Source of the DNA: a virus
Taxonomy: Duplodnaviria > Caudoviricetes
DNA: 55,725 bases
IMG/VR virus record: IMGVR_UViG_3300046001_005126
Coordinates: 1-55,725 of that record
Direction: 5' to 3' (one strand)
Within the stretch, counting starts at the first letter, position 1. Each line of letters opens with the position of its first letter. The position numbers and the translations under genes were made by a program. The notes beneath the pieces were generated by a model. The model was not told the DNA's origin. It saw only the letters and a list, made by a program, of their open reading frames with translations, and did not search any database. Below, one piece after another: positions 18,948-34,820 of the stretch.

Positions 18948-19442
18948 ATGGATATGAGTTCGGGTTCGAGTTCATCATACTGCCATTGCTGCAACAACTG
19001 TATCTGTGGTCGTCCAGTGGGAGATATCTTGCGGGTGCTGTGGTCATCAGGAAACGGCACGCATGGCTCAGCAGCGAGAGAGTTTCTCATTTACTACGGA
19101 ATGCACGATGAGCCTGGGATCACGTGTTCCCCATTCTCACCAGACCCATTCCCGGGTTACCGTGGGAGTGTTTCTGGGACGTTCCCATTGCCAATGGGCG
19201 GAACAAGAGGCGACACTCTGGAAGTGATTTTAGTGTGTCAATGCATCGGGTGTGAGTTTTGCATATATTATCGGTGGGTAAACGATGATGCTTATCCTAC
19301 CTGGCAAGTGGTTCCTTACACCATTCTCACGTGTGACTGCCCTGCGGTCTTAGACGTGATCGGTGGTTTCACTGAAGGTAACTCTTGGGGGTATCAGGTC
19401 AGCGATGTCACTGTTTACGAGCTTGAAAGCAACTGTTTATGA
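18948..19442 (+). CDS. Cys-rich hypothetical (probable tail-associated) protein
   Basis: Abuts the previous stop; YCHCCNNCICG, CQCIGCEFC, CDC. Confidence 0.65.
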   Translation: MDMSSGSSSSYCHCCNNCICGRPVGDILRVLWSSGNGTHGSAAREFLIYYGMHDEPGITCSPFSPDPFPGYRGSVSGTFPLPMGGTRGDTLEVILVCQCIGCEFCIYYRWVNDDAYPTWQVVPYTILTCDCPAVLDVIGGFTEGNSWGYQVSDVTVYELESNCL

Positions 19443-19594
19443 GACGCCTTCTGCTTGTTCTGTTGATTCCAATTGTGTCGCAATTTGGAGTCCACTATTT
19501 CCGAATATTCGCTAAGGCAATTGGCGAGGCATCGGTCAACCAGTGGAAACAAGTGATGGTCGAAAACATTGAGAAGGAATTCCCTCGTGAGTGA
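19439..19594 (+). CDS. Small hydrophobic protein, 51 aa (not in ORF track)
   Basis: MRRLLLVLLIPIVSQFG...; ATGA coupling; fills the gap. Confidence 0.5.
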   Translation: MRRLLLVLLIPIVSQFGVHYFRIFAKAIGEASVNQWKQVMVENIEKEFPRE

Positions 19595-22223
19595 TTGCCA
19601 GTGCGAACTGACCGGATTTTGTAAGGTGCGAAACATCGCAATGAAGCGAACGCATCAAATGATTTGCCGGGAGAATAAGCATCGCATGGACGCAATTCTG
19701 GCTGGCGAGCACACTAAAAGTCACGACGAAAACAACCAAGAAAAAGTGAAAGGTGTCGGAACAGTTCTGTCGTCAATCTTCAAAACTATTGGGATTGAAT
19801 CGTCGGAAACTTGTAATTGCAGGCGATATGCAGTGGAGATGGATCGACGAGGGACGAAGTGGTGTCTTGAAAACATAGACACAATCGTAGGATGGCTGCA
19901 AGAAGAAGCTGTCGCAAGAAAACTGGTGTTCTTTCGTGCTGGTGTAAAGATTGCCTTGTATTCATTACTTAAAAGCTATTCGATATTTGAAAAGGTTCGT
20001 CCGGACAGCGGCGAGGACAGCAGGGTCTTCAGCAGGCGAGACGACGAATGGGCAGTCGCAGTCACGGCAGCACCGCGAGCCGGAGAGTACACTCTTGCCA
20101 AATGCCTGCAGTCAATAATTGCGGCTGGCTGGAGCGACCCTATTGTCTTCGCAGAGCCTGGCATCGAGGTGCCTGAAGGAATAACCACATTCCACAACCC
20201 AGAACGTCGAGGCTGCTTTCACAACTGGCTTCACAGTGCAAAATGGGCACTTGAGAATACGCAAGCTGAAATGATCCTGTGCGTTCAGGACGACTCTCTG
20301 TTCCACCCGGACAGCAGGCAGTTCACCGAGGATCACTGCTTGTGGCCCAGTGATGACACTGGGATTGTCAGTCTCTACACTGCCTCGCACTACCAAAGCG
20401 AAAAAGGGGCGATGAAAGCAGTTGGGATTAACGAAGTCTACACGGGCGTATGGTGGGGCACTTGTGCTGTCGTTTGGAGGAGATCAGCACTTGAGGCAGT
20501 GGTCAGCCATGAAATAACAAAGAACTGGCTGGGTATTTCACCACGGAAACAGGCTGATGAAACCCATAACCCTAAACTGCGAGCAAAAAGGGTCGCTGAT
20601 TATTTTGAAGGAAGAAAAAAGCAGCCGCACCTAATCAACAACAGTGACTACGTCGCTGGGCATGTTCTCAACCTGCTTGGCTTCAGGAAGTTCTTTGTAG
20701 ACCCATCCCCAGTATCACACATTGCCAAAGTCTCAACAATAAATCACGGAGGGAATAGCGGCAAGAGGAATTGCGCACGATGTGCAGACCATAAAAAACC
20801 ACTCATGTCTCAGGTTGGGACAGTTATCAACAGGATTGAAAAGGAAGAAGACATTATGGCATCAGGAAGAGGACCAAGGCCAGCAGGAGCGTCGCTAATC
20901 ATAACTCCGGGACCATCAGTTGGCGCTGTGCCGAAACATACGTTTCTGATAAGGACTTCGTTTCGAGATCCAATAGTGTCGGCCTACAGATGGAACGTCA
21001 CTCAGCATACGTTGCTCAAGTCGCTCGCATCTCAAAACAACAAAGACTTTGAGATTCAACTCATCTGTGGAGATGATGACCCGCTGCGTGAAGTGAAGTT
21101 AGCGGCATTCAGTGAAGTTGCCCCGACAACAATTGCCCCGAAGGACTGGTACAACCAGCCACACGACGGGGTGTGGAGAAGAACAACCCGAGTCGATGAC
21201 GACGACATGCTGTCGATCCGGTTCGTAGAGCTTCTGGCAGAGCAGCCGTTTGACGGAACCGAATGTCTATTCAACTTCCCGATCGGATGCCTATGGTCAG
21301 AGGGGGTGTCACATCGCTGGAATTACCCAGTGAATCAGTTCATTACCATTCAGACGAACACGCGACTGACTCCGTATCATTTTGCGCATCAATACTATCA
21401 GCAACTCCTGCCTGTTGTTGTCGTGACCGAGGAGATCCACTGGATGTGGATCAGGCACCACGGGGTACTCAGTGGGGCAACACCGGGAGCAATTCCGAAG
21501 CGGTTTACGCATGGCGTGATACAGACAAACGCAAGTCTGTTTCCGTACGACTTTGCCACCATCAAGACTGCTCTAGTCCATGATCAGTCGGCGGTCGTGA
21601 AGGTTTTGGAGTTGCGGGCGAAGTACGGACGAGTTGACAAAGATGTACTCAACATCTGCGCAAACGCGACGACTGATGAGTTAACAACACTTGCAGCGAC
21701 TTACGGAACTGACAAAGGTGTCACTGGGACTACAGACAAAAACCATCAGTACACGCTGGTCTACGATCGCCTGTTTAAGGGGATGCGAGACCAGGTCGAA
21801 CACGTCCTTGAATTCGGCGTGGGCACCGGCGCAAGTCTTCGAATGTGGGCAGACTATTTCCCTAAAGCGATGATTCACGGGCTGGACGTTAAGCGAAGAA
21901 GTGTGCCACATCCTCGGATCGTAACACACAGGTTTAACTCCATCACCCCGCTTGACACACACTTCAAGTTCTCATTGGTGATTGACGACGCGAGTCACAT
22001 ATCGAGTCACCAAAGAGTCATGTTCGAACTGCACAGCAAACATGTCAAGCCAGGAGGGTTCTATATAATTGAAGACCTTCATGCCTGCAGACTGGGTGGC
22101 AAGTATTTAAACGAATCTCCTTCAATGCTTGAAACATGCCGTCTGTGGGTGTCTACTCCGCCATTCGGATGGACGTGCCAGCTTTACGGCGACCAGTTGT
22201 GCATACTGCAGAAAGATGAATAG
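19587..22223 (+). CDS. Multidomain protein: Cys-rich N-terminus + GT-A-like domain + rhamnosyltransferase-like domain + class I SAM methyltransferase
   Basis: CNC motif; CVQDD; SLASQ...TTRVDDDD; YGTDK..HQY..VLEFGVGTGASLRMW..IDDASH..GGFYIIEDL (sugar O-methyltransferase-like). Confidence 0.78.
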   Translation: MSDCQCELTGFCKVRNIAMKRTHQMICRENKHRMDAILAGEHTKSHDENNQEKVKGVGTVLSSIFKTIGIESSETCNCRRYAVEMDRRGTKWCLENIDTIVGWLQEEAVARKLVFFRAGVKIALYSLLKSYSIFEKVRPDSGEDSRVFSRRDDEWAVAVTAAPRAGEYTLAKCLQSIIAAGWSDPIVFAEPGIEVPEGITTFHNPERRGCFHNWLHSAKWALENTQAEMILCVQDDSLFHPDSRQFTEDHCLWPSDDTGIVSLYTASHYQSEKGAMKAVGINEVYTGVWWGTCAVVWRRSALEAVVSHEITKNWLGISPRKQADETHNPKLRAKRVADYFEGRKKQPHLINNSDYVAGHVLNLLGFRKFFVDPSPVSHIAKVSTINHGGNSGKRNCARCADHKKPLMSQVGTVINRIEKEEDIMASGRGPRPAGASLIITPGPSVGAVPKHTFLIRTSFRDPIVSAYRWNVTQHTLLKSLASQNNKDFEIQLICGDDDPLREVKLAAFSEVAPTTIAPKDWYNQPHDGVWRRTTRVDDDDMLSIRFVELLAEQPFDGTECLFNFPIGCLWSEGVSHRWNYPVNQFITIQTNTRLTPYHFAHQYYQQLLPVVVVTEEIHWMWIRHHGVLSGATPGAIPKRFTHGVIQTNASLFPYDFATIKTALVHDQSAVVKVLELRAKYGRVDKDVLNICANATTDELTTLAATYGTDKGVTGTTDKNHQYTLVYDRLFKGMRDQVEHVLEFGVGTGASLRMWADYFPKAMIHGLDVKRRSVPHPRIVTHRFNSITPLDTHFKFSLVIDDASHISSHQRVMFELHSKHVKPGGFYIIEDLHACRLGGKYLNESPSMLETCRLWVSTPPFGWTCQLYGDQLCILQKDE

Positions 22224-22990
22224 TGGAAGACATAAACGCAGTTGCTGCCATGAAGACGTACAGCAGCGACGATAACGCTTCTGATCGCGAAGACATTCAC
22301 AGGGCAATCAACACATACCAGAATACATGTGGCTTGCCGCTGCATGTGTTCGACGATAGTTCATGCCCGACGTATGTCGAGTATTTGATGGGATTCAAGG
22401 GCGTTTTTCTTCACAAACATGGGGAGAATGTCGGGCCAACTGAGAACAGCAATCGCTGTATGAGTCTGTTCAAACAGTATCACGAGATCGATGCGTTAAT
22501 CCTGCTGGATGACGATATCGAGTTCCTGAAGCCTGGCTGGTCAGACCTATACCTCAATGCACTCTCAGACGAAGTTCAGCTACTGTCATTCAATGACAAA
22601 GAAATCACGCAGTCACCCGGTGTCCCGCACGGCAACTACTCACTTTCGCAATGGAGTTGTGGAGTTTGCGTGACATTGACGCGGCAATGCTGGATGAAAG
22701 CTGGAATGTATGGACCATTCCCGGAAAAGTATGGATGGTGCCATATAGAGTACAACTGGCGATGTGCGTTACTGGGGCTCATCCCAATGGATGGGTTCTA
22801 TGACGTACCTGGAATCCATAACTACATTAAGATTTCCTCTTACTTAGGAAGCGAAGAAAAGCTGCGTCAAATCGCAGTCAACTGGTCATCAGAAACAGTT
22901 CAGTTGACTGTAGATAAATACTTCGCAGGAGATCAGGAGAGATGGGATAAATTAAAGAAAATCAATCAACCACTGCGGCCAGTTAGGTAG
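22223..22990 (+). CDS. Glycosyltransferase (GT2/GT-A-like)
   Basis: VFDDSS, N.G...N.N, LLDDDIEF, G.......YGW.H.EY motifs. Confidence 0.78.
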   Translation: MEDINAVAAMKTYSSDDNASDREDIHRAINTYQNTCGLPLHVFDDSSCPTYVEYLMGFKGVFLHKHGENVGPTENSNRCMSLFKQYHEIDALILLDDDIEFLKPGWSDLYLNALSDEVQLLSFNDKEITQSPGVPHGNYSLSQWSCGVCVTLTRQCWMKAGMYGPFPEKYGWCHIEYNWRCALLGLIPMDGFYDVPGIHNYIKISSYLGSEEKLRQIAVNWSSETVQLTVDKYFAGDQERWDKLKKINQPLRPVR

Positions 22991-23126
22991 CTACATCAGA
23001 ATCACCTCGCACGATTGCAGGACCGCAGAGAGGGACAGGCAGGCTGGCATCAACGGGTTATCAGAGCAAGTCCAATCATCTCTAAGCAAATACACTGCGA
23101 TGAGGCTGGAGGCAGGCATAGCATGA
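22986..23126 (+). pseudogene. Start-less remnant paralogous to the C-terminus of the upstream glycosyltransferase
   Basis: SYIRITSH..AERDRQAGINGLSEQVQSSLSKYTA aligns with NYIKISSY..EEKLRQIAVNWSSETVQLTVDKYFA. Confidence 0.65.
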
Positions 23127-23536
23127 TCAAGGTCTACACGGGCGGAACTTTCGATTTGTTTCATGCGGGGCATGTGCGATTCCTTCGCCGGTGCGCAGAT
23201 ATCGGGTACGTGACGGTTTCAGTAAACACAGATGACTTTGTATTGCGGTATAAAGGGAAAGCCCCTGTCATCAAACTTGAGGACCGCATTGCAGTCCTTG
23301 ACGCATGCCGGTGGGTTTCATGCGTAGTGGTGAATGAAGGTGACGAAGATTCAAAAGTCGCAATTGAAAAGATTTCCCCGGATGTAATCGCGATTGGTTC
23401 TGACTGGCAGGCAAAAGACTACTGCCGACAGATGGGGTTCACATCAGAATGGCTGGAAGCCAGAAACATTGCACTGGTATACCTGCCCTATACGGATGGA
23501 ATTTCATCAACCTTGATTAAAGAGAGAATGCAATGA
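23123..23536 (+). CDS. Cytidylyltransferase (TagD/RfaE-like)
   Basis: YTGGTFDLFHAGH (HxGH), IGSDW, YTDGISST. Confidence 0.92.
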   Translation: MIKVYTGGTFDLFHAGHVRFLRRCADIGYVTVSVNTDDFVLRYKGKAPVIKLEDRIAVLDACRWVSCVVVNEGDEDSKVAIEKISPDVIAIGSDWQAKDYCRQMGFTSEWLEARNIALVYLPYTDGISSTLIKERMQ

Positions 23537-24195
23537 TTCACATTCTGATGCCGACCAGAAACAAGCCCGAAGAAATCACCAGAGTGTGCAGCGAGTTAAG
23601 CGGATCGGAGTGTCGACTGTGGCTTTACGTGGCAGATGACGACCCTAAACTCGGCGAATACCAATCATTGCGTTTACCGACTGCAGCAACAGTCGTCTTC
23701 GGAACACCACTGGGGTTCAGTCGCGGAGTGAATCATCTTGCGAGCATCGCAGCAAAACAGCCAAACGCGACTATGCTCATGCGTGCCGAGGATGACTTTT
23801 ATTTCAAGCCGGGGTGGGATAAAAAATACAAAGAAGCCATGTGGAAAGACGGCGTCGGAATGGTATGGTGTAATTATGTGATGAAGGGGCCGGAAGCAGA
23901 GCCACACACAGCAGCGATAGGACTTGGGTGGTATCGTGCGCTCGGATGGTTTTCGTTGCCTGGCGTTCAACACCACTACTGCGATAACGTGTTGCGAGAA
24001 ATTGCTGAGGCCGCTGGTCGCAGCAGATACATCCCAGAGCCGATGATTGAGCATCGGCACAACCTCAAAGATCCAAGAAAGTGTGGGCATGGCCAGCAAA
24101 TCTATGATGCAGACAAAAAAAGGTATGATCAGTGGCGGAGTGGCGAAAAAGCAGACGACTGCAGACGAATTTTCGAAGCTCGACATGGAGTCTAG
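23533..24195 (+). CDS. Glycosyltransferase (GT2-like)
   Basis: ILMPTR, ADDD, AEDD..F..GWD, HHYCDN, IEHRH. Confidence 0.78.
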   Translation: MIHILMPTRNKPEEITRVCSELSGSECRLWLYVADDDPKLGEYQSLRLPTAATVVFGTPLGFSRGVNHLASIAAKQPNATMLMRAEDDFYFKPGWDKKYKEAMWKDGVGMVWCNYVMKGPEAEPHTAAIGLGWYRALGWFSLPGVQHHYCDNVLREIAEAAGRSRYIPEPMIEHRHNLKDPRKCGHGQQIYDADKKRYDQWRSGEKADDCRRIFEARHGV

Positions 24196-24343
24196 CCTGA
24201 TTGCGGGCGAGATGATGATCAGGGTTCGCGTGACTGACGGGAAAGTGCTGACACGAGTTCAGACAAAAGAATTCCCGAACGCGGACATCGCAATCGCGGC
24301 AAAGTCAATCGAAGAACAATTGGCGACTCTGTACGCCACATAG
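24185..24343 (+). CDS. Hypothetical protein, 52 aa
   Basis: In-operon ORF overlapping the upstream stop. Confidence 0.5.
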   Translation: MESSLIAGEMMIRVRVTDGKVLTRVQTKEFPNADIAIAAKSIEEQLATLYAT

Positions 24344-24363
24344 TATTGATGGCGGCGAAATCA

Positions 24364-25098
24364 ATGACCCAGTTCGTCTATCTCAACGTCATCGGTCCCG
24401 ACAACGGCGAAGAACTCCGGCTGTCGATGGCATCCGTGCGGAAGAACTTCACAGGATCGTCGACGTTCACGATCATCGGTGAAAAGCCGAACTGGTACAC
24501 AGGGCATCACATTCCGGCTTCACGCCTGACGAAGATGCGAGAACTGCCAGGTCGCATGGCGTTCCGCGACACACAAGCGAAGATCATGCTGGCAGCGTCT
24601 CATCCGGAGATCGACGAAGAGTTCGTCTGGATGATGGATGACCAGTTCTTCCTGAAGCCAGCGTCGATCGAGGATCTCAGAGTTCTTCGGTACGATCCGT
24701 GGTATCGGACGAATTCGAAGCGTGAATGGCATCGACTGATCAAGATGACGTTCGCCGCGCTGGCTGCAAATGGCAGGTCTAACTTTCAGGCCGGCACTCA
24801 TCTTCCGCATGTCTTCGAGAAGACGAAACTGCAGCAGATGTTCGTCGAATACGGGTTCCCGAATAATTTGTACCTGTTCGAAATACTGTACGAAAATCAT
24901 TGGCAATTGGATCGCACGCCGATACCTTACGGAAGCATTTGGCAGGGTGTTCAGTATCCGCAGTTTCTGAAGAGATTGCTGAGGCCGCTGATGTCTCGCC
25001 AATTGAATGAAATTGATGCCAATGTGCTCAACTACCAGAGCAACGTATGGAGGCCGACTATGCGAGATTGGCTGAGGAACAGGTTTACGGAGGAATGA
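24364..25098 (+). CDS. Putative glycosyl/phosphotransferase (Stealth-like N-terminus)
   Basis: EELRLSMASV..N, IIGEKPNW, FVWMMDDQFF, THLP resemble the ELRYSLRS / NDD / H.P motifs. Confidence 0.6.
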   Translation: MTQFVYLNVIGPDNGEELRLSMASVRKNFTGSSTFTIIGEKPNWYTGHHIPASRLTKMRELPGRMAFRDTQAKIMLAASHPEIDEEFVWMMDDQFFLKPASIEDLRVLRYDPWYRTNSKREWHRLIKMTFAALAANGRSNFQAGTHLPHVFEKTKLQQMFVEYGFPNNLYLFEILYENHWQLDRTPIPYGSIWQGVQYPQFLKRLLRPLMSRQLNEIDANVLNYQSNVWRPTMRDWLRNRFTEE

Positions 25099-25099
25099 G

Positions 25100-26590
25100 A
25101 TGCTCAATGTTTTCACCTACTGGGAGCATGCTCCGAAAGCTCGCAAGTGGCCTTACATTGAATTTTGCCTCGACACTATTCGATCGAAGTGTTTGGACGG
25201 CTGTTTGTTCCACCATATTACTTCAGCGAATATCGAGAAGTACATCCCAGACGGGATCATTCATCCGTCATGGAAGAACATCAAAGAACTCGGTGTGAAG
25301 TCCGATTGCGTCCGCGCTGCTGTGCTGATGCAGTATGGCGGGCTTTACATTGACGCAGATACGCTGATGCTGCGATCGCCAAAGGAACTCGACACAGGGC
25401 ATGAATGCGGATTCATGACGTGGTCTACTCCGCCGCGACGGGTAATCGCTGGTTACATCTACTGCTTCCCAGGCAGCGAAGTCGCGAAGAAGTGGGTTGC
25501 GAATATCAATGCAATGCTCGAGCAGGGAAAGCATGGATGGACTGATCTTGGAGAGAGGTGCCTGACTCCTGCCGTTGATTCCAGCGAAAACACGATCAAC
25601 TGGCCTTTGGCGACATTCCTCCCAATAGAGATCGACACGGATGTCCAGCGGTTCTTTAGCAGTTCTCCGTGGAAGGCTCCGGATCAGTCAGTCGCGATTG
25701 GATTGAATCATTCTCTTATGACGAGGAAGTATGCTGGAGAAATGAGGTCTGCAGGTCACGAGAATGCGTCGTTTAAGAAAAGATCGAAGGACTCAAAGCT
25801 AACGATTCACAAGATCTTCAGCAAAAGCAGATCATCTCAGAGTCAAATGAGGATCGGAGTTTGCGTTCCAACATTCCGCAGGCCGAAACTGCTTGGGCAT
25901 TTGATCTCCTGCTTCGAAAGCCAAAAGTACGAAGACAGGCTCCTGATCGCATATGACGACCATGGAGAGATCGCTGAGTCGTCCGGCGATCGCTGGAAGA
26001 TCGTAAGTCGCAACGATCCACATGCCTCTCTAGGAGATAAGAGAAACGCGATCGCTGAGATGTTCGGCGATTCCGTCGATGCATTCGTGTTCTGGGATGA
26101 CGACGACATCTTCCTTCCTGATGCATTGTCTGCCGTGGAGAACGCACTGAGCCGATCAGACTGGTGCAGGGCGAGTCAGGTACTTGTTCGTGGAACTCGG
26201 GATCTGTCGCGGTGCAAGACTTACTGGCGCGAAGACAAGTCTGACAAAGCGTTTCAGTGTACCTGGGGGGTGACTCGTTCTGCGTTCTGGAGTGTCGGCG
26301 GGTTCGATTCTGTTTCTCTGGGAGAAGACCTTCGACTTGCAAAGAAACTGCGAGACGCGAAGATCAGCGAGGCTGACCCGATTGCAATGGGATGGAGTCC
26401 TTATGCTGTTTCATCGCCATACGGAAATGAACACTTTTCGTGGACTGTTAAGGATTACGAGAAGTGGAAGGATGTCGCAAAGTCTGACGGCGAATTCAGG
26501 GTTGCGGATCATCCATTCAGTTTGAAGATTGCAGATCATGTCAATGATCGATCTTGGAAGGGAGATTGGTATGACGACGAAGTACGATGA
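25100..26590 (+). CDS. Two-domain glycosyltransferase (GT32-like + GT2)
   Basis: SDCVRAAVLMQYGGLYIDAD; VCVPTFRR...LGDKRN...FWDDDD...GED. Confidence 0.88.
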   Translation: MLNVFTYWEHAPKARKWPYIEFCLDTIRSKCLDGCLFHHITSANIEKYIPDGIIHPSWKNIKELGVKSDCVRAAVLMQYGGLYIDADTLMLRSPKELDTGHECGFMTWSTPPRRVIAGYIYCFPGSEVAKKWVANINAMLEQGKHGWTDLGERCLTPAVDSSENTINWPLATFLPIEIDTDVQRFFSSSPWKAPDQSVAIGLNHSLMTRKYAGEMRSAGHENASFKKRSKDSKLTIHKIFSKSRSSQSQMRIGVCVPTFRRPKLLGHLISCFESQKYEDRLLIAYDDHGEIAESSGDRWKIVSRNDPHASLGDKRNAIAEMFGDSVDAFVFWDDDDIFLPDALSAVENALSRSDWCRASQVLVRGTRDLSRCKTYWREDKSDKAFQCTWGVTRSAFWSVGGFDSVSLGEDLRLAKKLRDAKISEADPIAMGWSPYAVSSPYGNEHFSWTVKDYEKWKDVAKSDGEFRVADHPFSLKIADHVNDRSWKGDWYDDEVR

Positions 26591-27278
26591 AGAGAAGCGA
26601 TTCTGGAAGGATGAGATCTCTTTTTACGTCCGATGGTTCCACGGAAGAATCAAGGAACTGTACGGCATTCCCTGTCCGAAGCAGCATGAGAAGATTCAGC
26701 GTTTCTCTTCGGAAGAACTGAATGCGATCGAGACGTGGATCAATGCCGACAAATGGCGATACTGCAAGAGACTGCATGTTGAGCCAACGTACTTCTCGGG
26801 CAAGAAAGTTCTGGAAGTTGGCTCTGGTCCGCTGGGGTTGAGTCGGTTCTTTGCTGGCGCGGAAGTGCATTATCTCGATCCACTTCATGCATGGTACTGG
26901 CAGTGCGGATACCGCAAGGTTGGATATTCAATCGAGGCGAGAATAGAAGACTGCATGCACCATCGATATGACGCTGTAATTTCAGTGAATGCAATCGATC
27001 ATGTCGATCAGTTTGAAGACGCAATCGATGCCTGTGAAATGATGTGCGACATGGACGGCGAAATCCGCATGGACATCCACTACCACGCACCAACAGTCAC
27101 AGAACCACACGTCCTGAATGACGAGATCGTCGCTGCGGCATTTAAGAGATTCGACATGAAGAAGATAGCGGAGAATCCGTCGCGAGTCTTCTATCCACGC
27201 GGTACGCATCCAGACTCCGATCGATTCGCTGTGTGGAGCAATCGCGACTACGTTTATGACGCAGTGAGGTCGCTGTGA
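26571..27278 (+). CDS. Class I SAM-dependent methyltransferase
   Basis: KKVLEVGSGP, YDAVISVNAIDHV. Confidence 0.85.
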   Translation: MTTKYDEEKRFWKDEISFYVRWFHGRIKELYGIPCPKQHEKIQRFSSEELNAIETWINADKWRYCKRLHVEPTYFSGKKVLEVGSGPLGLSRFFAGAEVHYLDPLHAWYWQCGYRKVGYSIEARIEDCMHHRYDAVISVNAIDHVDQFEDAIDACEMMCDMDGEIRMDIHYHAPTVTEPHVLNDEIVAAAFKRFDMKKIAENPSRVFYPRGTHPDSDRFAVWSNRDYVYDAVRSL

Positions 27279-28195
27279 ACCGAGAACAAGCACTTGCAAA
27301 GATGGTCGCCCCTGTCAAGAAGCGAAAGACTGCCTGGCTGAAAGGAATCATCCAGATCCACGTCACCCGCGCCTGTGATTTGGCATGCTCCAATTGCACG
27401 CAAGGATCTCAGTTCGGAGGCAAGGCCTCGTTCATTACCGAAGAAAACTTCGAGGCGGCTGTCATCAGTCTGAAGGACTATTTCGGCGTTGTGGGGATCT
27501 TCGGCGGGAATGCCGCTCTTGCTCCAAACTTCGAAGCACTCTGCCTAATCCTTGAAAAGCATATCCCGAAGAATCGTCGAGGACTCTGGTGCAACAATCC
27601 ACGAGGACACGGCAAGCTGATGCGACGGGTGTTTAACCCGAAAGTTTCGAACCTGAATGTGCATTTGGTTAAGGACGCCTACGACGAATTTAAGCGTGAC
27701 TGGCCAGAGTCAGAACCGTTCGGACTTCACCACGACTCACGTCATTCTCCCGTCTACGGATCACTGGAGAAACTGGTTCCGGACGAGTCGCAGCGATGGG
27801 ATCTCATCGGCAACTGTGCGATCAACCAGAACTGGTCGGCGATGATCTGTCAGTTCCGTGGCGAACTTCGCGGATACTTCTGCGAGATTGCTGGCGGGCA
27901 GGCGATGCTGAACCAAGAGAATCCGGAATACCCTGATACCGGAGTGAGAATCGAGGCAGGATGGTGGAAGAAGGCGATGCCGGAATACGGCGCACAAGTC
28001 GACTTTCATTGCCATCGATGTCTCGTTCCGTTGAACGGTCACGGGGCGCTGGCTCAGGCCGACAAGAAGACACAGGTCACGGAAGAGTATTCTCACCTGA
28101 AGTTAAAGTCTGGAGGAACATTCCAGATCGTCGACAGTGTCAATGACATTCTTCCCGAAGAAAATCGCATCGTGACGGAGTACCTTGGAACATGA
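27275..28195 (+). CDS. Radical SAM protein
   Basis: CDLACSNC (CxxxCxxC), FGGN, additional C-terminal Cys including CHRC. Confidence 0.88.
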   Translation: MNREQALAKMVAPVKKRKTAWLKGIIQIHVTRACDLACSNCTQGSQFGGKASFITEENFEAAVISLKDYFGVVGIFGGNAALAPNFEALCLILEKHIPKNRRGLWCNNPRGHGKLMRRVFNPKVSNLNVHLVKDAYDEFKRDWPESEPFGLHHDSRHSPVYGSLEKLVPDESQRWDLIGNCAINQNWSAMICQFRGELRGYFCEIAGGQAMLNQENPEYPDTGVRIEAGWWKKAMPEYGAQVDFHCHRCLVPLNGHGALAQADKKTQVTEEYSHLKLKSGGTFQIVDSVNDILPEENRIVTEYLGT

Positions 28196-28734
28196 GAATA
28201 CAAACTCGTGACTGCTTGGGTGATGTTGCGAACGCTTTGGGCCTTAGAACTGCTGTCGAGGTAGGGACTCATCAGGCAGTATTTGCCCGCTCATTCATGA
28301 AGAGATTCAGGGGATCGATCACGCTTGTCGATCCTTGGCTCGACTACGAGCAGGGCAAGGATGCGTTTTATCCTTCTGTCGACCCAACAAGCAAGACTCG
28401 ATCGAAGGACATGCAGATCGCCGTCGGGATCATGACGGAATTCTACGGACGGGTGACTTTTATGCAGACGACGGGTGAGCAGGCGTCTCATTCGTTTGCC
28501 GATTCATCAGTCGGCATTGTCTACATCGACGCACTTCACGAGTATCAAGACGTGATCAGCGATATCAACACATGGTTTCCGAAAGTTGCCAGTGGAGGGA
28601 TCATTGCAGGTCACGACTTTAGTTACATGCTTCCCGGAGTTGTTGCTGCTGTGGAAGAATTCAGGATCAAGAGCGGACTTCAGGTCAACCTGACTTGCGA
28701 CGATATGCCGTCATGGTGGGCGATCAAGAGATAG
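28192..28734 (+). CDS. Methyltransferase (Methyltransf_24-like)
   Basis: VEVG, VDPW, VYIDALHEY..V..DI..W...GGIIAGHDF. Confidence 0.88.
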   Translation: MRIQTRDCLGDVANALGLRTAVEVGTHQAVFARSFMKRFRGSITLVDPWLDYEQGKDAFYPSVDPTSKTRSKDMQIAVGIMTEFYGRVTFMQTTGEQASHSFADSSVGIVYIDALHEYQDVISDINTWFPKVASGGIIAGHDFSYMLPGVVAAVEEFRIKSGLQVNLTCDDMPSWWAIKR

Positions 28735-28754
28735 TTCCAAGGAAGAGGCGTTTT

Positions 28755-29498
28755 ATGACAGCAATCAAGCCCCGAGGCATCACTGTCTGCGTCGACTACG
28801 CCGACATCCTCGCACTGACGCTTCCGTACAACCGGGAGTTCTTCAGCGAGTTCATGGTGGTCACGACGGTCAAGGATCATCAGACAATCCACCTCGCGCA
28901 GGAGAACGACTGTCATGTCCATCTCAGCGATGCTTTCTATCGTGGCGGCGCTGTGTTCAATAAGTTTGCAGCGATGGAAGAAGGGCTTGACGTTTTCGGT
29001 CGGCACGACTGGATGTGCATCATTGATGCTGACATCGTCATCCCGAAGAACAAGCTCGCCTGGGTGCCGAAGGTCGGGAAGATCTACACTCCGCATCGCA
29101 GAATTCTCCACCAGATCCCGGCGGAAATCCCGGAACATCGCCTATGGCGACAGTCGAAGAGGCCGATGAACAACGAAGAGTTCGCAGGCTACTTCCAGTT
29201 GTTCCATGCGAGCGAACCGTTCCTTCAGAAAACTCCGTGGCATGGGACGGACTGGACGTGGGCCGGTGGCGCTGACTCGTTCTTCCATCAGAAGTGGTCA
29301 GAGTCGAATAAGGTTCGGCCACCGTTCGAAGTTCTGCATCTCGGGCCACCGTTCATCAACTGGTGCGGACGAGTCACTCCGTTCGCTGATGGGACGACAC
29401 CCGAGAAGGCGATGCTTCGCAACGAGCATAGGATGATGCTGCTGAAGAATCGGCGGGAGAACAAGCAGGACAAGTACAAGGCGGAGAAACTGAAGTGA
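28755..29498 (+). CDS. Glycosyltransferase-like (DxD) protein
   Basis: TVCVDYAD.L, FNK, IIDADIV, GYFQLF. Confidence 0.7.
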   Translation: MTAIKPRGITVCVDYADILALTLPYNREFFSEFMVVTTVKDHQTIHLAQENDCHVHLSDAFYRGGAVFNKFAAMEEGLDVFGRHDWMCIIDADIVIPKNKLAWVPKVGKIYTPHRRILHQIPAEIPEHRLWRQSKRPMNNEEFAGYFQLFHASEPFLQKTPWHGTDWTWAGGADSFFHQKWSESNKVRPPFEVLHLGPPFINWCGRVTPFADGTTPEKAMLRNEHRMMLLKNRRENKQDKYKAEKLK

Positions 29499-30298
29499 GA
29501 ATCTCCGTCGGAATTCTGTCAGCGCCGAGGCCAGAGCCGACGCTTCTCAAGTGTTCGAGTGCGATCGCTGAGTCTGGATTCAGCCTGATCCATCACGCGA
29601 CGGAATCAGAGAGCAGGCATTTTCTGTCGCCGTGTGAGTTTGAGCGATCGCCGACGGGATCTCTCGGGAACTTCCAGAATTGGCTGCAGACTGCCAGGGA
29701 TCTGCTCACGATGGACCACGACGCAATCCTGATCGCCGAGGATGATGCTTTGTTCTGCCGGGACGTGCATGCACTTCTGCAGCGGGATCTCTGGCCTTCC
29801 CGGGACTGTGGTTGCGTCTCGCTGTACTGCCCTGCAATGTCGCACTATTCCCAGACATCGTTCGGGCTCGGTAGAACTCGAGTCGTCATGCGGGAACCGC
29901 TGTCAAGCAGCAACAATCTGGTCGGCGCGCTCGCTCTTGTATTTCCGGCTGCTGTTCTGCGAGAACTCGTTTATCACGAATCGATCGGACTCTGGAAGGG
30001 ATCGCACTCGCAGGCGAGGAATCCCGGAACACCACCTTATGAGCGAAAGGCGGTCGACACATGGATTGGCAGAACTCTGGTTTCGATGGGTCTGTCGATT
30101 TGGAACTATTCGCCGAGCCTCGTTCAGCATTATGTCCCGAATCCAAAAGCGGCCAATTCTTCGCTTGGGCATGGTTTGGCCAACGGAAACCGCCAGTCGC
30201 GGTCGTGGGCTGGAAATTCAAGGCAGAGTGTGCTGGAAATGATTCCGGCGCGAAGGGAGAGATTTGATGGTGCCGGTGTACCTGAACATTCGGTCTGA
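29495..30298 (+). CDS. Glycosyltransferase-like protein
   Basis: ILIAEDDALF, PSLVQH; paralogous to domain 2 of the 19587 protein. Confidence 0.72.
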   Translation: MRISVGILSAPRPEPTLLKCSSAIAESGFSLIHHATESESRHFLSPCEFERSPTGSLGNFQNWLQTARDLLTMDHDAILIAEDDALFCRDVHALLQRDLWPSRDCGCVSLYCPAMSHYSQTSFGLGRTRVVMREPLSSSNNLVGALALVFPAAVLRELVYHESIGLWKGSHSQARNPGTPPYERKAVDTWIGRTLVSMGLSIWNYSPSLVQHYVPNPKAANSSLGHGLANGNRQSRSWAGNSRQSVLEMIPARRERFDGAGVPEHSV

Positions 30299-30977
30299 GT
30301 ATGCGGAGGCGGACAGTTCGCGGTATCGGTTCTCGCTGACCGAGAACATTCTGATCCCGAGCCTCAAGAATCAGGTCGCTCGAGGAGCGATCATCTTCCT
30401 GGAGCAGTCTCCGATGGATCCGTACTTCAAGCGGCGGGAGAAAGCCTTTAGGTCAGTCACTGATCGCGTTATTCCGATGCACGAGAAGGAAGGCATAGAA
30501 TTGCCGGCTAGAGTTGAGGCGACAGTTGGCGACGACGACTTCCTCGGGCCGGAGTTTGTCCAGAAAATGCGGATGGGGTTTACGCCGGAACGCGGAAACG
30601 TCCAGATGTTCATGCCGCATGGGTACATTTTCTTCGAGGGAGCCCTGCATCCGTGGCGGAACAAAGCGGATTTCATTGAGATCACTCAGTACGGAAACCC
30701 GGGTTCGCCGGTCGTTCGGCACGAAGGATTCGACATTGCCAGCACTCCGCAGTGGATTTACTGCAGGCATCAGATGAATTTTAACCCGCTTTCGGCTTCA
30801 GAAGTAGATGCTCCTGAGATAAAACTGGCTGCGTGGAAGGGTTGGCATCAAGGAATAGTGGCTCGCTATTGCCAAACCCAAGTCCTCACGGCGACTGCGA
30901 ATGGGTGTACTTTGCACCCAACAAAAAGCAAGTCGATGATGTACGCTAAGGGTTCTGCCCGTAGTCGAAGGAAATGA
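30264..30977 (+). CDS. Rhamnosyltransferase-like protein
   Basis: IPSLKNQ, GDDDFL, WIYCRH; paralogous to domain 3 of the 19587 protein. Confidence 0.6.
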   Translation: MMVPVYLNIRSEYAEADSSRYRFSLTENILIPSLKNQVARGAIIFLEQSPMDPYFKRREKAFRSVTDRVIPMHEKEGIELPARVEATVGDDDFLGPEFVQKMRMGFTPERGNVQMFMPHGYIFFEGALHPWRNKADFIEITQYGNPGSPVVRHEGFDIASTPQWIYCRHQMNFNPLSASEVDAPEIKLAAWKGWHQGIVARYCQTQVLTATANGCTLHPTKSKSMMYAKGSARSRRK

Positions 30978-31249
30978 TCATGGACTGTCTGGTTTGCTGG
31001 CTAGCAACATTTGGATTCGCTTTTACCATCGCGTTGACGCATGGTCCGCTGGGCTTATTCAAGACGATGCGGGAGAAAGTGAAGGCTCGCTTCGGCGAAA
31101 AACACTGGGTGACAATCGGAATTGGGTGCCCCGTCTGTATCAGCATGTGGGTTGCAATTCTGTTCACAATAGCCTCCGGTGGGGGCATCCTGATGTGGGC
31201 GTCGAGCGTGGGGTTCACCTGCGCTGTGACAAGCATCAGTCCCGATTAA
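30974..31249 (+). CDS. Small membrane protein with CxxC (DUF1360-like)
   Basis: Hydrophobic segments; GP.G.F...R and CPVCISMW. Confidence 0.7.
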   Translation: MIMDCLVCWLATFGFAFTIALTHGPLGLFKTMREKVKARFGEKHWVTIGIGCPVCISMWVAILFTIASGGGILMWASSVGFTCAVTSISPD

Positions 31250-31337
31250 GTCCACTGCCCGGGCCATGGTGTGATTCCTTCGCACTTCCATGGAGACGCC
31301 CCCGGGCAGTGGCAACCACATTTTCAGGAGATCTGTC

Positions 31338-31541
31338 GTGAATAACGCGAGCTGGAAAACAACCGCCGCCGGCATCGTCGCGGCGTTAAGCATTCTCCTT
31401 CATCAGGCGAATGCATATCTGGACACAGACCCGAAGACAGTCTTCGACCTGACTCAGGTCATTGCTGCGTTTGGGATGCTGTGGATGGGAATCTCTGCTC
31501 GGGACAACAACGTCACGAGCGAAAAGGCAAAGGCAAAGTAG
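31338..31541 (+). CDS. Holin-like two-TM protein
   Basis: SWKTTAAGIVAAL...GISARDNNVTSE; two hydrophobic helices, basic tail; aggag RBS. Confidence 0.65.
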   Translation: MNNASWKTTAAGIVAALSILLHQANAYLDTDPKTVFDLTQVIAAFGMLWMGISARDNNVTSEKAKAK

Positions 31542-31565
31542 TTTCACAGTTCAGAAAGGCGTCTC

Positions 31566-31922
31566 ATGAACAATTTGAACAAGCAAGCTCGGCTTGCAGC
31601 GGATCGCGTCGACTCTTCAGTCGGGCTCGATCCAATTACGATCCTCACGATCATCACTCAGGTTCTTCCGTTCCTGACTTCGTGCTGGAACAGGAATGAT
31701 TCTCCGGATCCGGCGGAATCGAAGAAGAAGTTGCAGGCGTATGCTGAGAAAAGTCCGCAGGCACTGCTGAAACGAACGGCACGACGTGTTCGTTCGGAAG
31801 CCGACGAGAAACTGACCAAACTGGAATCCTTTGATATCGCCAGGGCGATTATCGAGCAGGCGTTGTCTGCAGACGAAGAGACGGTCGCAGCCTGCTGCGC
31901 GGAAGCACCGGAGGGGCTATGA
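31566..31922 (+). CDS. Hypothetical protein with hydrophobic helix
   Basis: GLDPITILTIITQVLPFL; coupled to the next gene. Confidence 0.7.
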   Translation: MNNLNKQARLAADRVDSSVGLDPITILTIITQVLPFLTSCWNRNDSPDPAESKKKLQAYAEKSPQALLKRTARRVRSEADEKLTKLESFDIARAIIEQALSADEETVAACCAEAPEGL

Positions 31923-32788
31923 GAGAGTCATTTGCAGTCTTGGCTGCTTTTATGGGCTTGCTCCTCGCTACAGTTCAGGACGAACCCGCAGTTCTGAAGC
32001 CTGCTCCCGACAAGATCAGCGAAGCCCCACAGATTATTTTCCCGACGATCCCGGTGATCGACGAGAAAGACATCCCTGAAGAAGACCTGCCAGTTCCGGT
32101 TCCGCGCCCGAAGCGAGGCCCAGAATTCGTCTCGAAACTGAATGAAGAGACGTGGCTTGTTATTGAATCACCGGGACCGCTGATGATCTTTGACTTTCCG
32201 GAAGGACTGGTCGAGATTGATTCCGACGACGGCGCACGACCGATGAAAGTCAAAGGGAAGTTCGCCGACGGCACTGGCAAGGTCGAGACACGCACATTCA
32301 CGAGCAAGCATCTGTACTTCGTTAATGCGGTGAAGTCGGGCCAGATGGAAATGCTGATCATCCCAGAGGGAGCGATCAGTAAGACGCAGTCCCAGCGACA
32401 TAAGATCGTCGTCATGGGGCAAGGTCCGATTCCTCCGCCGGATCCCGATCCAATACCAGATCCCGATCCTGTACCTGTTCCGACAGGCAATGTGGTCATC
32501 GCGATTGTCGAGGACGCGCAGAATAGAAAGCCTGATACGGCGATTCTTTTGAATGCGATGGCGAGTTGGAATTCCCTGAAAGACGCTGGTAACGACTGGC
32601 GTCTTTATGACGTTGCAACCAGCGAGTCAAAAGGGAAGCAGGCAGTTGAAGATGCGAAGTCTTCCGAGTTGCCGGCGATGATCATTCGCGACAAGGAGAC
32701 GGATAAGATCCTACGAGTGATTCCGTTGCCGAAAGATTTCGACTCGCTCAAAAGAATTCTTTCTGAACTGGGGGTGAAAGGTGTCTGA
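31919..32788 (+). CDS. Exported/membrane-anchored protein with Pro-Asp linker and possible thioredoxin-like C-terminal fold
   Basis: N-terminal hydrophobic segment; PPPDPDPIPDPDPVPVP linker; LPAMII segment, no CxxC. Confidence 0.65.
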   Translation: MRESFAVLAAFMGLLLATVQDEPAVLKPAPDKISEAPQIIFPTIPVIDEKDIPEEDLPVPVPRPKRGPEFVSKLNEETWLVIESPGPLMIFDFPEGLVEIDSDDGARPMKVKGKFADGTGKVETRTFTSKHLYFVNAVKSGQMEMLIIPEGAISKTQSQRHKIVVMGQGPIPPPDPDPIPDPDPVPVPTGNVVIAIVEDAQNRKPDTAILLNAMASWNSLKDAGNDWRLYDVATSESKGKQAVEDAKSSELPAMIIRDKETDKILRVIPLPKDFDSLKRILSELGVKGV

Positions 32789-33587
32789 GGAAATCGAACA
32801 GATCATTGATGAGACTGGCGAAACACGCCGACTCGGATCTCTGGCTCCTCAGGAGGGATTCGTATCGGCGTTCAACACGTTTGAGCAGGAACATCCTGTC
32901 TGGGACGACGCTGATATCAAACGAGTCGTGACGAACTCAGACAGAACTCCGCGCCGAGTCCTGTTTGCAAAAGAGTGGATTCAGAACCAGAAAAGCCACG
33001 GATCCTGCAACGGATACGCGGCTTCTGGCGCTTTGGCGAAAGCTCGCTTCCTGCGAGGGATTCAGGATAAGCTGAAGCTCTCTGGAGCGTTCATCTACTC
33101 GCTCATCAACGGTGGGCAGGATAACGGTTCTGCTCTGGAGAGCGGACTGAAGGTTATTGGCACTCACGGAGCCCCACCAGAGGCTCTGGTTCCGTGGAAC
33201 ATGATTTACCCCAAGCAGCAGCCATCAAACGCCAAGGCAGAAGCCCTGAAGCACCGTGGGCTGAAGTGCTACGCTGTACAGACGAAGCAGGGATTCCGAA
33301 CGGCTCTAGCCGCTGGGTTCCCTGTGATCGTGGCTGTTCAGGCCGGATCGAAGTTTCAGCGACTGAATGCCCAGGGGATTGCCTCGGCGGATTCAGGCGG
33401 CGGCAACCATGCGATCCACTGCGACGACATCCGGATTGTTGGCGGGCAGGAAGTTTACGACTCCTGCAATTCATGGGACGTGACTTACGGAGACCAAGGG
33501 CGAGCATTCCTGACGTGGGATTCGTTTGCCCAGACCTTCGGTCGGCATACGTTTTACGCCGTCGCGAGTACCGAAGAAAAGGATTAG
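32781..33587 (+). CDS. Papain-like (C1 family) cysteine peptidase
   Basis: QNQKSHGSC (Gln...Cys), LS..FIY, NHAI (His), NSW...YG..G (Asn). Confidence 0.88.
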   Translation: MSEEIEQIIDETGETRRLGSLAPQEGFVSAFNTFEQEHPVWDDADIKRVVTNSDRTPRRVLFAKEWIQNQKSHGSCNGYAASGALAKARFLRGIQDKLKLSGAFIYSLINGGQDNGSALESGLKVIGTHGAPPEALVPWNMIYPKQQPSNAKAEALKHRGLKCYAVQTKQGFRTALAAGFPVIVAVQAGSKFQRLNAQGIASADSGGGNHAIHCDDIRIVGGQEVYDSCNSWDVTYGDQGRAFLTWDSFAQTFGRHTFYAVASTEEKD

Positions 33588-33589
33588 TC

Positions 33590-34186
33590 ATGCAAAACGT
33601 CGTCTTCCTGCTTCTGTGCTGTCTTTCCGGGCCTCCGGAGATCTTCTCAGCCACCGGCGTTTACGCTGAAAAACCGAAAGCGACTCCTGCTCCGTACCTG
33701 CTCATGTTCACCGCAGAATGGTGCGGACCATGTCAGGCGTGGAAAAAGTCCGGGAAGAAAAAGCAGATCGAGGAAGCCGGCGTTTCCGTGACTTTCGTCG
33801 ACATCGACAAGAATCCAGAGTACCGGATCGTGGGAGGACCGCTTCCAGCAGTGGATCGGTTCCCGACGTTCTGGCTTATGATCCCGCCCAACCAGAAGCC
33901 GGTCAAGGTGTGGGTCGGAACAGTTTCGCACTTGGATGTGCGGGCGAATTTGCGAATCCGCAGGTCAAAGGAAGATCTGGACAAATGGGTTCGCAGTAAT
34001 TACACCGAGCAAACCACGTTAAAGATGGGTATGAAAAACAATTCGGAAGTCTGGAATCATCTTACAGATGGGACGGAAGGGACGCATGTTTTCACAAAAG
34101 AGCAGATTTCAGGGCTTGATTTATGGGTTGCCTTAGCACTTCATGACGCTTTGCATTCCGGAAAGCTGACTCCGTTTGTAGACTGA
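33590..34186 (+). CDS. Thioredoxin-domain protein with hydrophobic N-terminus
   Basis: FTAEWCGPC, VDID, FPTF; C-terminal HL..H...HD..H extension. Confidence 0.88.
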   Translation: MQNVVFLLLCCLSGPPEIFSATGVYAEKPKATPAPYLLMFTAEWCGPCQAWKKSGKKKQIEEAGVSVTFVDIDKNPEYRIVGGPLPAVDRFPTFWLMIPPNQKPVKVWVGTVSHLDVRANLRIRRSKEDLDKWVRSNYTEQTTLKMGMKNNSEVWNHLTDGTEGTHVFTKEQISGLDLWVALALHDALHSGKLTPFVD

Positions 34187-34199
34187 GCAGGGTTCCGCC

Positions 34200-34820
34200 A
34201 TGGCAATGCTGGCTTTTTGCTCAGGAAATGGAATCCAAGATGTGGATGAACTTGAAAACCTTTTCAATAAACTGGTTGGGCTTTGGGGAATCCTGCTTGG
34301 TTGTGGTGGTGCCCTTCTTGCCGGTCACAAGTGGATCCGCCAGTGGTGCCGTACTGTCAGTCGTGCTATGCGGTTTTCTGTCGCTATGCATACTCATTTC
34401 GGTGCTAACCCCGCAGCTTCAGTTATTGAGTCACTCCGCGAGCATACACGCGACGGCGCTATTCGAGAGATCCGTCTCACACTTCTCGAAGAAAGCCTGG
34501 GAGCGGGAATCTACCTCTGCCATCCCGACACAGGTTCCTGCTTTAAGTGCAACACAGCCCTCTCTGAGTTGTGGGGAGTCGACCAAGTGTCTTTCTGTGA
34601 GTTTGGTTGGCTTTCCGCAGTTATGCCAGACGACCGGCTTGCCGTCCACGAGCGTTGGATTTCGAGCGTTAGAAATAAAATCCCGTATGAATGTGAGTAC
34701 CGAATCAGAAACCAAAGGACAGGACGAGAGTTCCGAGTCGTAACTCGGGCATATCCGGCGGTATTGAAAGATGGTACGATTCTGTGCTACGTTGGGACTG
34801 TGGAAGAGATGAGGCACTGA
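34200..34820 (+). CDS. Membrane-anchored PAS/PAC-domain protein
   Basis: TM helix LVGLWGILLGCGGALL; N..L..LWG, GWLSAVMPDD, YECEYRI, G....YVG PAS/PAC pattern; no output domain. Start may be GTG 34242. Confidence 0.8.
   Translation: MAMLAFCSGNGIQDVDELENLFNKLVGLWGILLGCGGALLAGHKWIRQWCRTVSRAMRFSVAMHTHFGANPAASVIESLREHTRDGAIREIRLTLLEESLGAGIYLCHPDTGSCFKCNTALSELWGVDQVSFCEFGWLSAVMPDDRLAVHERWISSVRNKIPYECEYRIRNQRTGREFRVVTRAYPAVLKDGTILCYVGTVEEMRH

Follow-up and report, generated by a model that had tools for sequence, protein, structure and literature searches.

In the genome of a tailed phage, IMG/VR record IMGVR_UViG_3300046001_005126, which we analysed over its whole length of 55,725 nucleotides (nt; hereafter the window), we detected a pair of adjacent genes that may act together on the host envelope. 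The upstream gene encodes a protein of 289 amino acids (aa), here called the ProLinker partner, in which a cysteine-free thioredoxin-fold domain stands behind proline-rich spacers, and the downstream gene encodes a xylellain-type C1A cysteine peptidase. The two genes are kept side by side in unrelated phages, are fused into one chain in a few relatives, and have products that are predicted to bind each other. We give an even chance to the reading that the region encodes a two-component, envelope-directed lytic peptidase, with either peptidoglycan peptides or wall proteins as its substrate.

The peptidase matched Pfam Peptidase_C1 (PF00112) at 30.7 bits against a cut-off of 20.7 (E 4.2e-7). An alignment of 27 homologues revealed that the catalytic residues Q70, C76 and H210 are invariant; the position of N230, which the window retains, holds Asn in 20 of the 27 and Gly in 7. 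Fold predictions covered two window open reading frames (ORFs), the peptidase and its ProLinker partner, and the AlphaFold2 (AF2) model of the peptidase has a two-lobed papain fold (predicted local distance difference test, pLDDT, 94.1; predicted template modelling score, pTM, 0.92). The best solved match was xylellain (3ois_A; Z 24.4, root-mean-square deviation (rmsd) 2.8, 237 aligned), which covered model residues 1-267, and matches were also found to procathepsin K (Z 21.6, rmsd 3.0, 231 aligned) and to the S-layer-processing Cwp84 (Z 20.2, rmsd 3.2, 233 aligned). Since proenzymes align from model residue 9-10 (residue 62P of the procathepsin K propeptide) and mature enzymes from 31-47, the first ~45 residues are positioned in the model like a C1A prosegment, and this stretch may block the active-site cleft. 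The translation of the stand-alone peptidase has no signal peptide. Tat export through a conserved RR motif was considered and rejected, because the segment lacks hydrophobicity and, in the model, forms strands that pack against the enzyme with pLDDT >90. A profile search of 1.84 billion representatives (clusters at 50% identity) returned 6653 proteins at E≤1e-3, of which 1388 passed E≤1e-10 and 231 passed E≤1e-30, and 149 listed members were examined for domain architecture.

A search among longer relatives for forms fused to a wall-binding domain returned only intein-bearing versions of about 610 aa. An insert interrupts the peptidase in P0121-P0126, P0168, P0216 and P0221, which are ~460-660 aa long. 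Matches to Intein_splicing and Hom_end_hint were obtained for P0126, P0168 and P0216, and weak ones to LAGLIDADG_3 for P0168 and P0221. In those members whose insert could be located by the profile, it immediately precedes the region of the catalytic Cys. P0121 (610 aa) shares 95% identity with the window peptidase across 74% of the latter.

In the AF2 model of the partner (pLDDT 85.6), a helix (residues 2-17) is followed by a Pro-rich spacer of low confidence, then by a beta-sandwich (70-165), another Pro-rich spacer and, at 192-283, an alpha/beta domain. The hydrophobic N-terminal helix is likely to be a signal peptide or an anchor. The protein has no Pfam match, and its fold was recognised from structure: with residues 186-289 as the VIA query, the top 50 matches were all thioredoxins or thioredoxin-fold domains (Z 8.0-9.3, rmsd 2.6-4.0, 84-93 aligned). 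Because it contains no Cys, the partner is not an oxidoreductase. Its shortest homologues, of 131-139 aa, have a hydrophobic N-terminus, a short spacer and the thioredoxin-fold domain only, and the beta-sandwich is absent from them. Foldseek related the beta-sandwich to the chagasin-type (MEROPS I42) EhICP2 (3m88, E 2.1e-3, TMt 0.49) and to amebosin (6cjz, E 1.6e-3), weak matches that stood among generic Ig-like ones, and the loop motifs of the chagasin family were not seen in residues 70-165. The partner lacks the marks of a spanin, as its model has no long helices and, with no Cys, it has no lipobox; its Pro-rich, periplasm-spanning spacers are a functional resemblance to spanins only.

Peptidase searches yielded 37 loci, 30 from IMG/VR and 7 from a genome collection, which together with the window make 38 sources (the window and L002-L038). 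Profiles found both the ProLinker and the peptidase gene in 32 of the 38, and in 30 of these 32 the partner is directly upstream, its stop lying -16 to +2 nt from the peptidase start; both exceptions come from one Gemmataceae metagenome-assembled genome (MAG). At least three of the six remaining sources (L016, L027, L030) have a contig end at the peptidase match. In the window the two genes overlap by 8 nt (GGTGTCTGA), with a purine-rich stretch directly upstream. The pair's neighbours vary, including terminase (L008, L018, L021), integrase (L010), replication (L011, L012, L022), capsid (L014) and fibre (L020) genes, and the pair is present in complete genomes with four different terminase/portal/capsid sets. 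Judged by this comparative gene content, the conserved unit is a two-gene core of ProLinker and peptidase, not a six-gene cassette.

Four of the 149 representatives (P0256, P0260, P0270, P0273) join the peptidase and the thioredoxin-like partner domain within a single chain (partner domain detected by hmmsearch at E 2e-7 to 1e-13). Read by eye, P0256 has a signal-peptide-like start and P0270 and P0273 have an internal transmembrane (TM)-like segment; P0260 is without its N-terminus. The C-terminus of P0273 is a CPGGVCP-plus-Arg tail, as on small proteins after the peptidase in L007 and L011, and no genomic context for this fused form was found in IMG/VR. A ~100-aa C-terminal extension of the peptidase with an invariant CxxC occurs in P0205, P0231, P0263 and P0274; as a thioredoxin, this extension has only weak PDB profile matches (3d4t, E 0.039; 8pr6, 'Thioredoxin family protein', E 0.061) and no Pfam match.

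When the peptidase was modelled in complex with residues 186-289 of the partner, a span that took in the thioredoxin-fold domain and not the beta-sandwich, the score was 0.89 versus 0.00 for the best of three controls. That score was attained by 58 of 80 solved complexes and by 2 of 110 mismatched pairs, counts that are rough since our own alignments were used. Contact agreement between the complex runs was at least 83%, and the partner pLDDT at least 88. The predicted contacts on the peptidase lie at 37-61, 91-95, 161-162, 177-180 and 262-267 and include no catalytic residue; those on the partner include 200-218, after the first strand, where thioredoxins bear their CxxC. The partner is thus predicted to bind the peptidase. 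The link between peptidase and thioredoxin proposed in the initial annotation, which had been made from the letters of the window, finds support here in an obligate, putatively exported neighbour with a Cys-less thioredoxin fold, the four fusions, the predicted binding and the four CxxC extensions.

Small ORFs with hydrophobic segments were concentrated around the pair, making up 45 of 139 within three genes of it versus 28 of 334 in the remainder of the 24 loci used (odds ratio 5.2, Fisher p 4e-10), in heuristic gene calls from non-independent loci. A divergent pair was also seen in the complete genome G460 (L117 14400-16057), where a 288-aa signal-peptide/Pro-linker/thioredoxin-like protein overlaps by 4 nt a 264-aa papain-like protein with Q..C, H and NQW. 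Our A1 peptidase profile missed this pair, and the peptidase family is therefore wider than that profile shows.

In the window, all six genes listed by the initial annotation at 30974..34820 were present on the + strand, with a further 118-aa gene between the holin-like and Pro-rich genes (Table 1). That annotation had also called the run a compact operon. The packing is indeed tight, with intergenic gaps of -8 to +40 nt, but the cassette is continuous with the glycosyltransferase genes upstream, with overlaps of -35 and -4 nt, and because the run continues into them it cannot be separated as an operon of its own by spacing. Promoter- and terminator-like sites were at chance level only.

Table 1. 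Genes of the run around the ProLinker-peptidase pair, and stand-alone copies of the C-terminal domain of the thioredoxin found downstream of the peptidase at other loci.
Record	Feature	Position	Strand	Basis
Window	91-aa membrane protein, three hydrophobic segments, CLVC and CPVC motifs	30974..31249	+	Hydropathy
Window	83-aa holin-like candidate, two moderately hydrophobic segments, Lys/Glu-rich C-terminus	31290..31541	+	Hydropathy
Window	118-aa protein, one hydrophobic segment, 4-nt overlap with next gene	31566..31922	+	Hydropathy
Window	289-aa ProLinker partner, N-terminal hydrophobic helix, 11% Pro, 0 Cys	31919..32788	+	Translation, AF2 model
Window	268-aa xylellain-type C1A cysteine peptidase, GTG start	32781..33587	+	Pfam PF00112
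Window	198-aa thioredoxin, WCGPC, hydrophobic N-terminus	33590..34186	+	Pfam PF00085
Window	206-aa protein, one TM-like segment and PAS_3	34200..34820	+	Pfam PF08447
L007	Stand-alone copy of C-terminal domain	10849-11379
L011	Stand-alone copy of C-terminal domain	10810-11211
L025	Stand-alone copy of C-terminal domain	10804-11271
L029	Stand-alone copy of C-terminal domain	10709-11113

The genes around the pair were far less constant. By blastp, the 91-aa CxxC membrane protein has homologues at 6 of the 37 loci, all in close relatives apart from L009; it matches phrog_781, of unknown function, at 23.5 bits, falls below the DUF1360 cut-off of 21 (15.5 bits, E 0.018), and is by its distribution an accessory gene. 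The 83-aa protein (7 of 37 loci) matches phrog_29636, also of unknown function, at 21.5 bits; Pfam and PHROGs returned no holin family for it, even with thresholds relaxed to E≤1 and E≤0.1. It is holin-like only in generic features, namely its size, a charged tail and two hydrophobic segments (Kyte-Doolittle 1.73 and 1.67 over 15 aa). Homologues of the 118-aa gene were found at 9 of the 37 loci, and no family in Pfam, PHROGs or NCBIfam matched it. The membrane PAS gene matches PAS_3 at 46.6 bits (cut-off 25.6) and has homologues at none of the 37 loci, even where the peptidase is ~90% identical, nor any relative in the genome collection, where it was tried as a host marker; by this distribution it is strain-specific and outside the conserved module. 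With the PAS gene at 0 of 37 loci and the WCGPC thioredoxin (all in close relatives) and the CxxC membrane protein at 6 each, we rejected the six-gene cassette as a unit, which was how the initial annotation had drawn it.

The thioredoxin matches PF00085 at 29.0 bits against a cut-off of 23.5, and its WCGPC motif was read from the translation. Its homologues were detected in L002-L006 and the MAG contig L032, and a thioredoxin gene also follows the pair in L012; the CxxC thioredoxin is by its occurrence a recurrent accessory and not part of the obligate core. Its C-terminal domain (~125-198), with conserved W133, N156-H157-L158, H166, H185-D186 and H189, is a domain not described before, has no Pfam or NCBIfam match and no usable Atlas match (best 0.82), and may possibly be a metal site. 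In every case it is preceded by a hydrophobic N-terminus and its gene directly follows that of the peptidase; in four loci it stands alone (Table 1). Proteins with this W..NHL..H..HD..H domain are one of two kinds that recur after the peptidase, the other being small Cys-loop proteins with a basic tail.

Sequence-profile searches of the window returned no peptidoglycan hydrolase family in Pfam (76 ORFs, E≤0.01), in PHROGs (E≤0.001, or E≤0.1 on 44 unannotated ORFs) or in NCBIfam (50 ORFs). Six-frame searches with ten Pfam lysin families (Phage_lysozyme, Amidase_2, Amidase_3, SLT, GH108, GH25, M23, M15_4, NLPC_P60 and CHAP) placed none of 31 pair-carrying records above cut-off, the only sub-threshold scores being 12.6 bits for GH108 in G017 and G018 and 13.5 bits for CHAP in G025 and G026; control genomes were positive for nine of the ten families and for GH108 in none. 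Four further complete pair-carrying genomes (231 ORFs) likewise lacked a canonical peptidoglycan hydrolase. The observation that this genome has no recognisable muramidase, amidase or M15/M23 peptidase, from which the initial annotation had set out, thus held in Pfam, PHROGs, NCBIfam and the six-frame searches.

Some known systems resemble the pair in part. One is a 753-aa protein of Alicyclobacillus phage MMB025 (CDS0095, PV686781.1), annotated as 'endolysin' by its depositor, with matches to Peptidase_C1 (27.9 bits), Rv2525c_GlyHyd-like (101.2) and PG_binding_1 (67 bits). Its N-terminal C1 domain shares 27% identity with residues 46-267 of the window peptidase (E 4e-13), the Gln-Cys and Asn-x-Trp motifs being aligned, and its gene stands in a lysis-type position after tail fibre genes. 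Unlike the window peptidase, it has no N-terminal extension and no thioredoxin-fold partner, is fused to glycoside-hydrolase-like and PG_binding_1 domains, and belongs to a phage of a Gram-positive host. By analogy, it offers a precedent for a lytic role of the peptidase. CHAP and NlpC/P60 endopeptidases have a papain-type Cys-His active site and serve as phage lytic enzymes, the role proposed here for the window peptidase; they differ in that neither family passed its cut-off in any of the 31 records and the window protein has the full two-lobed C1A fold with a propeptide-like segment. PlyC, a streptococcal phage lysin encoded by two genes, one for the catalytic and one for the wall-binding subunit, is also a lytic enzyme made from two adjacent, mutually binding gene products, but it is not known to have a thioredoxin fold, a signal peptide or a sequence relation to the pair, and it acts on Gram-positive walls. 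In the signal-anchor-release (SAR) endolysin P1 Lyz, thiol-disulfide chemistry gates a phage lysin in the periplasm, and in baculovirus V-cathepsin a viral C1A protease breaks down the host for release; neither is known to have a ProLinker-type partner, P1 Lyz being a muramidase and V-cathepsin targeting insect tissue together with a chitinase. Xylellain itself (Xylella fastidiosa, 3OIS) is the best structural match including the N-terminal extension and the ~268-aa stand-alone size, but it shares only 17% identity and is a bacterial gene, and we know of no thioredoxin-fold partner coupled to it. A 2023 survey (PMC10380794), in its available part, reports that Myoviridae and Siphoviridae acquired short C1A peptidases of the xylellain type, names V-cath, and gives the phage C1A copies no function. 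Literature searches on the pairing or its lytic role, on planctomycete phage endolysins, on Peptidase_C1 in phage lysis and on C1A endolysins returned nothing relevant.

The host is probably a planctomycete. Five of the seven genome-collection matches lie in Planctomycetota MAG contigs, one of which (1.5 kb) has 93% identity to the window, and the others are in Pseudobdellovibrionaceae and Kapaibacterium MAGs. The peptidase profile matched 2 of 401 sampled Planctomycetota genomes at E≤1e-15, the centre genome included. Because the pair is so rare in genomes, the host evidence rests on those five contigs of seven, and the planctomycete host implied by the initial annotation stands as a likelihood; the rarity itself is in keeping with lytic phages that now and then end up in a bin of their host. 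Planctomycetes do have peptidoglycan (PMC4432640), and Planctomycetia are reported to have Cys-rich wall proteins with a YTV motif (PMC12673574), so both candidate substrates exist in such hosts. A phrase search for literature on planctomycete phages gave nothing relevant, and in the available text of a 2025 review of the phylum the word 'phage' occurs once.

We suggest that the pair could act as follows. The upstream gene would give a Sec-exported protein whose Pro-rich spacers extend the Cys-less thioredoxin-fold domain into the periplasm, and the downstream gene, translationally coupled to it, would give the C1A peptidase without a signal peptide, held as a zymogen by its ~45 N-terminal residues. 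Late in infection the small holin-like membrane proteins encoded upstream might release the peptidase, which would then dock onto its partner in the periplasm and cut peptide bonds of the wall, either in peptidoglycan stem peptides or in Cys/Pro-rich wall proteins. Where an exported WCGPC thioredoxin is present, it may be an optional helper that keeps the catalytic Cys reduced or opens substrate disulfides, and the PAS gene would be an unrelated passenger. The peptidase may simply be a peptidoglycan endopeptidase, because a homologous C1 domain is part of a multidomain endolysin with a peptidoglycan-binding domain; in a BFVD fold search, phage proteins named 'Peptidoglycan binding-like' and 'N acetylmuramidase' also shared the peptidase fold. 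A bolder version holds that phages of Planctomycetota and neighbouring lineages exit without any muralytic enzyme, and that a zymogen-like C1A peptidase, captured and activated in the periplasm by a redox-dead thioredoxin-fold subunit and aided by a live thioredoxin where one is present, dismantles a disulfide-bonded, protein-reinforced wall; we regard this version as doubtful.

Several observations weigh against a lytic pair. The initial annotation took the absence of an endolysin as a mark of the cassette and proposed their anticorrelation in related phages as a check. When records sharing the window's radical-SAM gene were used as an anchor, none of the 36 matched the peptidase profile, and five of them, at least 92% complete (275 ORFs), were also without a canonical peptidoglycan hydrolase. 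One of these five control genomes is G460, with its divergent pair; the remaining four (G441, G442, G471, G461) have neither a pair nor a recognisable endolysin. Anticorrelation on this anchor is therefore uninformative and 'endolysin-free' does not distinguish the cassette: since pair-free relatives also lack a recognisable endolysin, its absence is no evidence for the peptidase as a substitute, and reflects this group of phages and the profiles now in use. About 40 window ORFs are without annotation, and a cryptic hydrolase among them is possible. Directly after the pair, G025 and G026 carry a permuted papain-like amidase candidate of 175-178 aa (L026 10819-11346 and L043; Peptidase_C92 22.6 bits, below the cut-off of 27; PDB 3kw0, E 1.2e-6), a possible second lysin, so the peptidase may not act alone; the same candidate would mark the locus as wall-directed. 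No small gene matched a holin or spanin family in Pfam or PHROGs. The stand-alone peptidase has no wall-binding domain, and because it has no signal peptide either, the enzyme and its partner would start in different compartments. By their entry titles, its nearest solved relatives (xylellain, cathepsins and Cwp84) are ordinary proteases. Finally, the cassette is flanked by a glycosyltransferase block on one side and by fibre-like genes on the other, a position that would also suit surface remodelling.

That position is part of what speaks for a non-lytic exported protease, one that would serve receptor destruction, superinfection exclusion or surface remodelling together with the glycosyltransferase block while unrecognised genes carry out lysis. 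The cassette is continuous with an ~11-kb glycosyltransferase/methyltransferase/radical-SAM block, a signal peptide or anchor is seen on the partner and on the fused forms, accessory genes (PAS among them) differ between strains in a moron-like manner, and the pair-free relatives without recognisable endolysins imply that the group has lysins of an unknown kind in any case. Across loci, however, the pair mostly does not adjoin glycosyltransferases, its neighbours are small membrane or secreted proteins as in lysis cassettes, and the stand-alone peptidase has no export signal. The family is also kept at 50-90% identity across unrelated phages and even hosts inteins, which suggests a core function, and we consider a non-lytic role unlikely. 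The initial annotation had offered, as an alternative, that the module matures the Cys-rich virion; on this view the peptidase would process heads or tails or act on Cys-rich structural proteins. No prohead protease family was recognised in the window by Pfam or PHROGs, ORFs of the tail region reach 5.3%, 6.2% and 7.9% Cys against 1.9% overall, and the pair follows the capsid gene in L014 and the terminase in L008. Yet its position varies between modules and its neighbours are small membrane proteins, and the signal peptides or anchors on the partner, the thioredoxin and the fused forms would place the system outside the cytoplasm, where virions are assembled; virion maturation fits these features poorly and seems to us very improbable.

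The mechanism put forward by the initial annotation involves no peptidoglycan hydrolysis: a Cys/Pro-rich protein wall held by disulfides would be reduced by a thioredoxin and then digested by the C1 peptidase. The host evidence is favourable to this proposal, with five of seven genome matches in Planctomycetota MAG contigs and Cys-rich YTV-motif wall proteins reported in PMC12673574, as are the true protease fold with S-layer-processing Cwp84 among its structural relatives, a CxxC thioredoxin adjoining or fused to the peptidase in several lineages, and the lack of a peptidoglycan hydrolase in profile searches. This lack, however, is not specific to pair carriers, and planctomycetes possess peptidoglycan (PMC4432640). 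The redox-active thioredoxin is missing from most pair loci, with homologues at 6 of 37, while the obligate partner, having no Cys, is unable to reduce. The pair also occurs in Pseudobdellovibrionaceae- and Kapaibacterium-binned contigs, and a homologous C1 domain is part of a peptidoglycan-binding endolysin. We therefore find reduction followed by proteolysis quite unlikely, and continue to favour the two-component lytic peptidase, acting on either peptidoglycan or wall protein.

The peptidase family is widespread, with 231 clusters at E≤1e-30, and moves between unrelated phages, always with the same partner. If the pair is lytic, a C1A peptidase with a separately exported thioredoxin-fold subunit would join the known lysin architectures, would provide a handle on what holds the planctomycete envelope together, and would account for part of the environmental phage genomes without an annotatable endolysin. 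Even if it is non-lytic, the pairing of a protease with a pseudo-thioredoxin, seen in fusions and in a controlled complex model, is a clean target for biochemistry.

The genome that carries the pair is effectively complete. The first 40 bases of the record are repeated at 55599, which gives a 127-bp end overlap, and the CheckV completeness estimate is 93%. The 127-bp direct repeat is common to positions 1-127 and 55599-55725 of a record that IMG/VR classes as linear, and may be the assembly overlap of a circular or circularly permuted genome. Pfam and PHROGs identified a large terminase, a portal, a tape-measure-like protein and fibre-like genes, as expected of a tailed phage, and a primase-polymerase, SNF2 and UvrD helicases and several HNH-AP2 endonucleases are also encoded; no tRNAs were found in the window. 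The block upstream of the cassette (19569-30977), which separates it from the tail genes and includes a cytidylyltransferase as well, may be a virion or DNA glycosylation system. Its radical-SAM gene (27275-28195) has 36-98% identity to 39 IMG/VR loci in otherwise different phages.

The three small Cys-rich head-tail ORFs of the window (10592-11275, 11880-12314 and 18948-19442, with 5.3%, 6.2% and 7.9% Cys against 1.9% overall) had no family match. Four genes dispersed along the window resemble HNH and/or AP2 homing endonucleases (2839-3384, 49672-50268, 53236-53640 and 54180-54710), and two of these match phrog_99 strongly. Two of the pair-free control genomes carried features of their own: the large terminase of G442 (L112 13569-16556) has a LAGLIDADG/Hom_end insert, and G461 (L123 12754-13794, 16002-16874) encodes a 5-hydroxymethyldeoxyuridine (5-hmdU) DNA kinase and an amino acid:DNA transferase, both of them enzymes of thymidine hypermodification.

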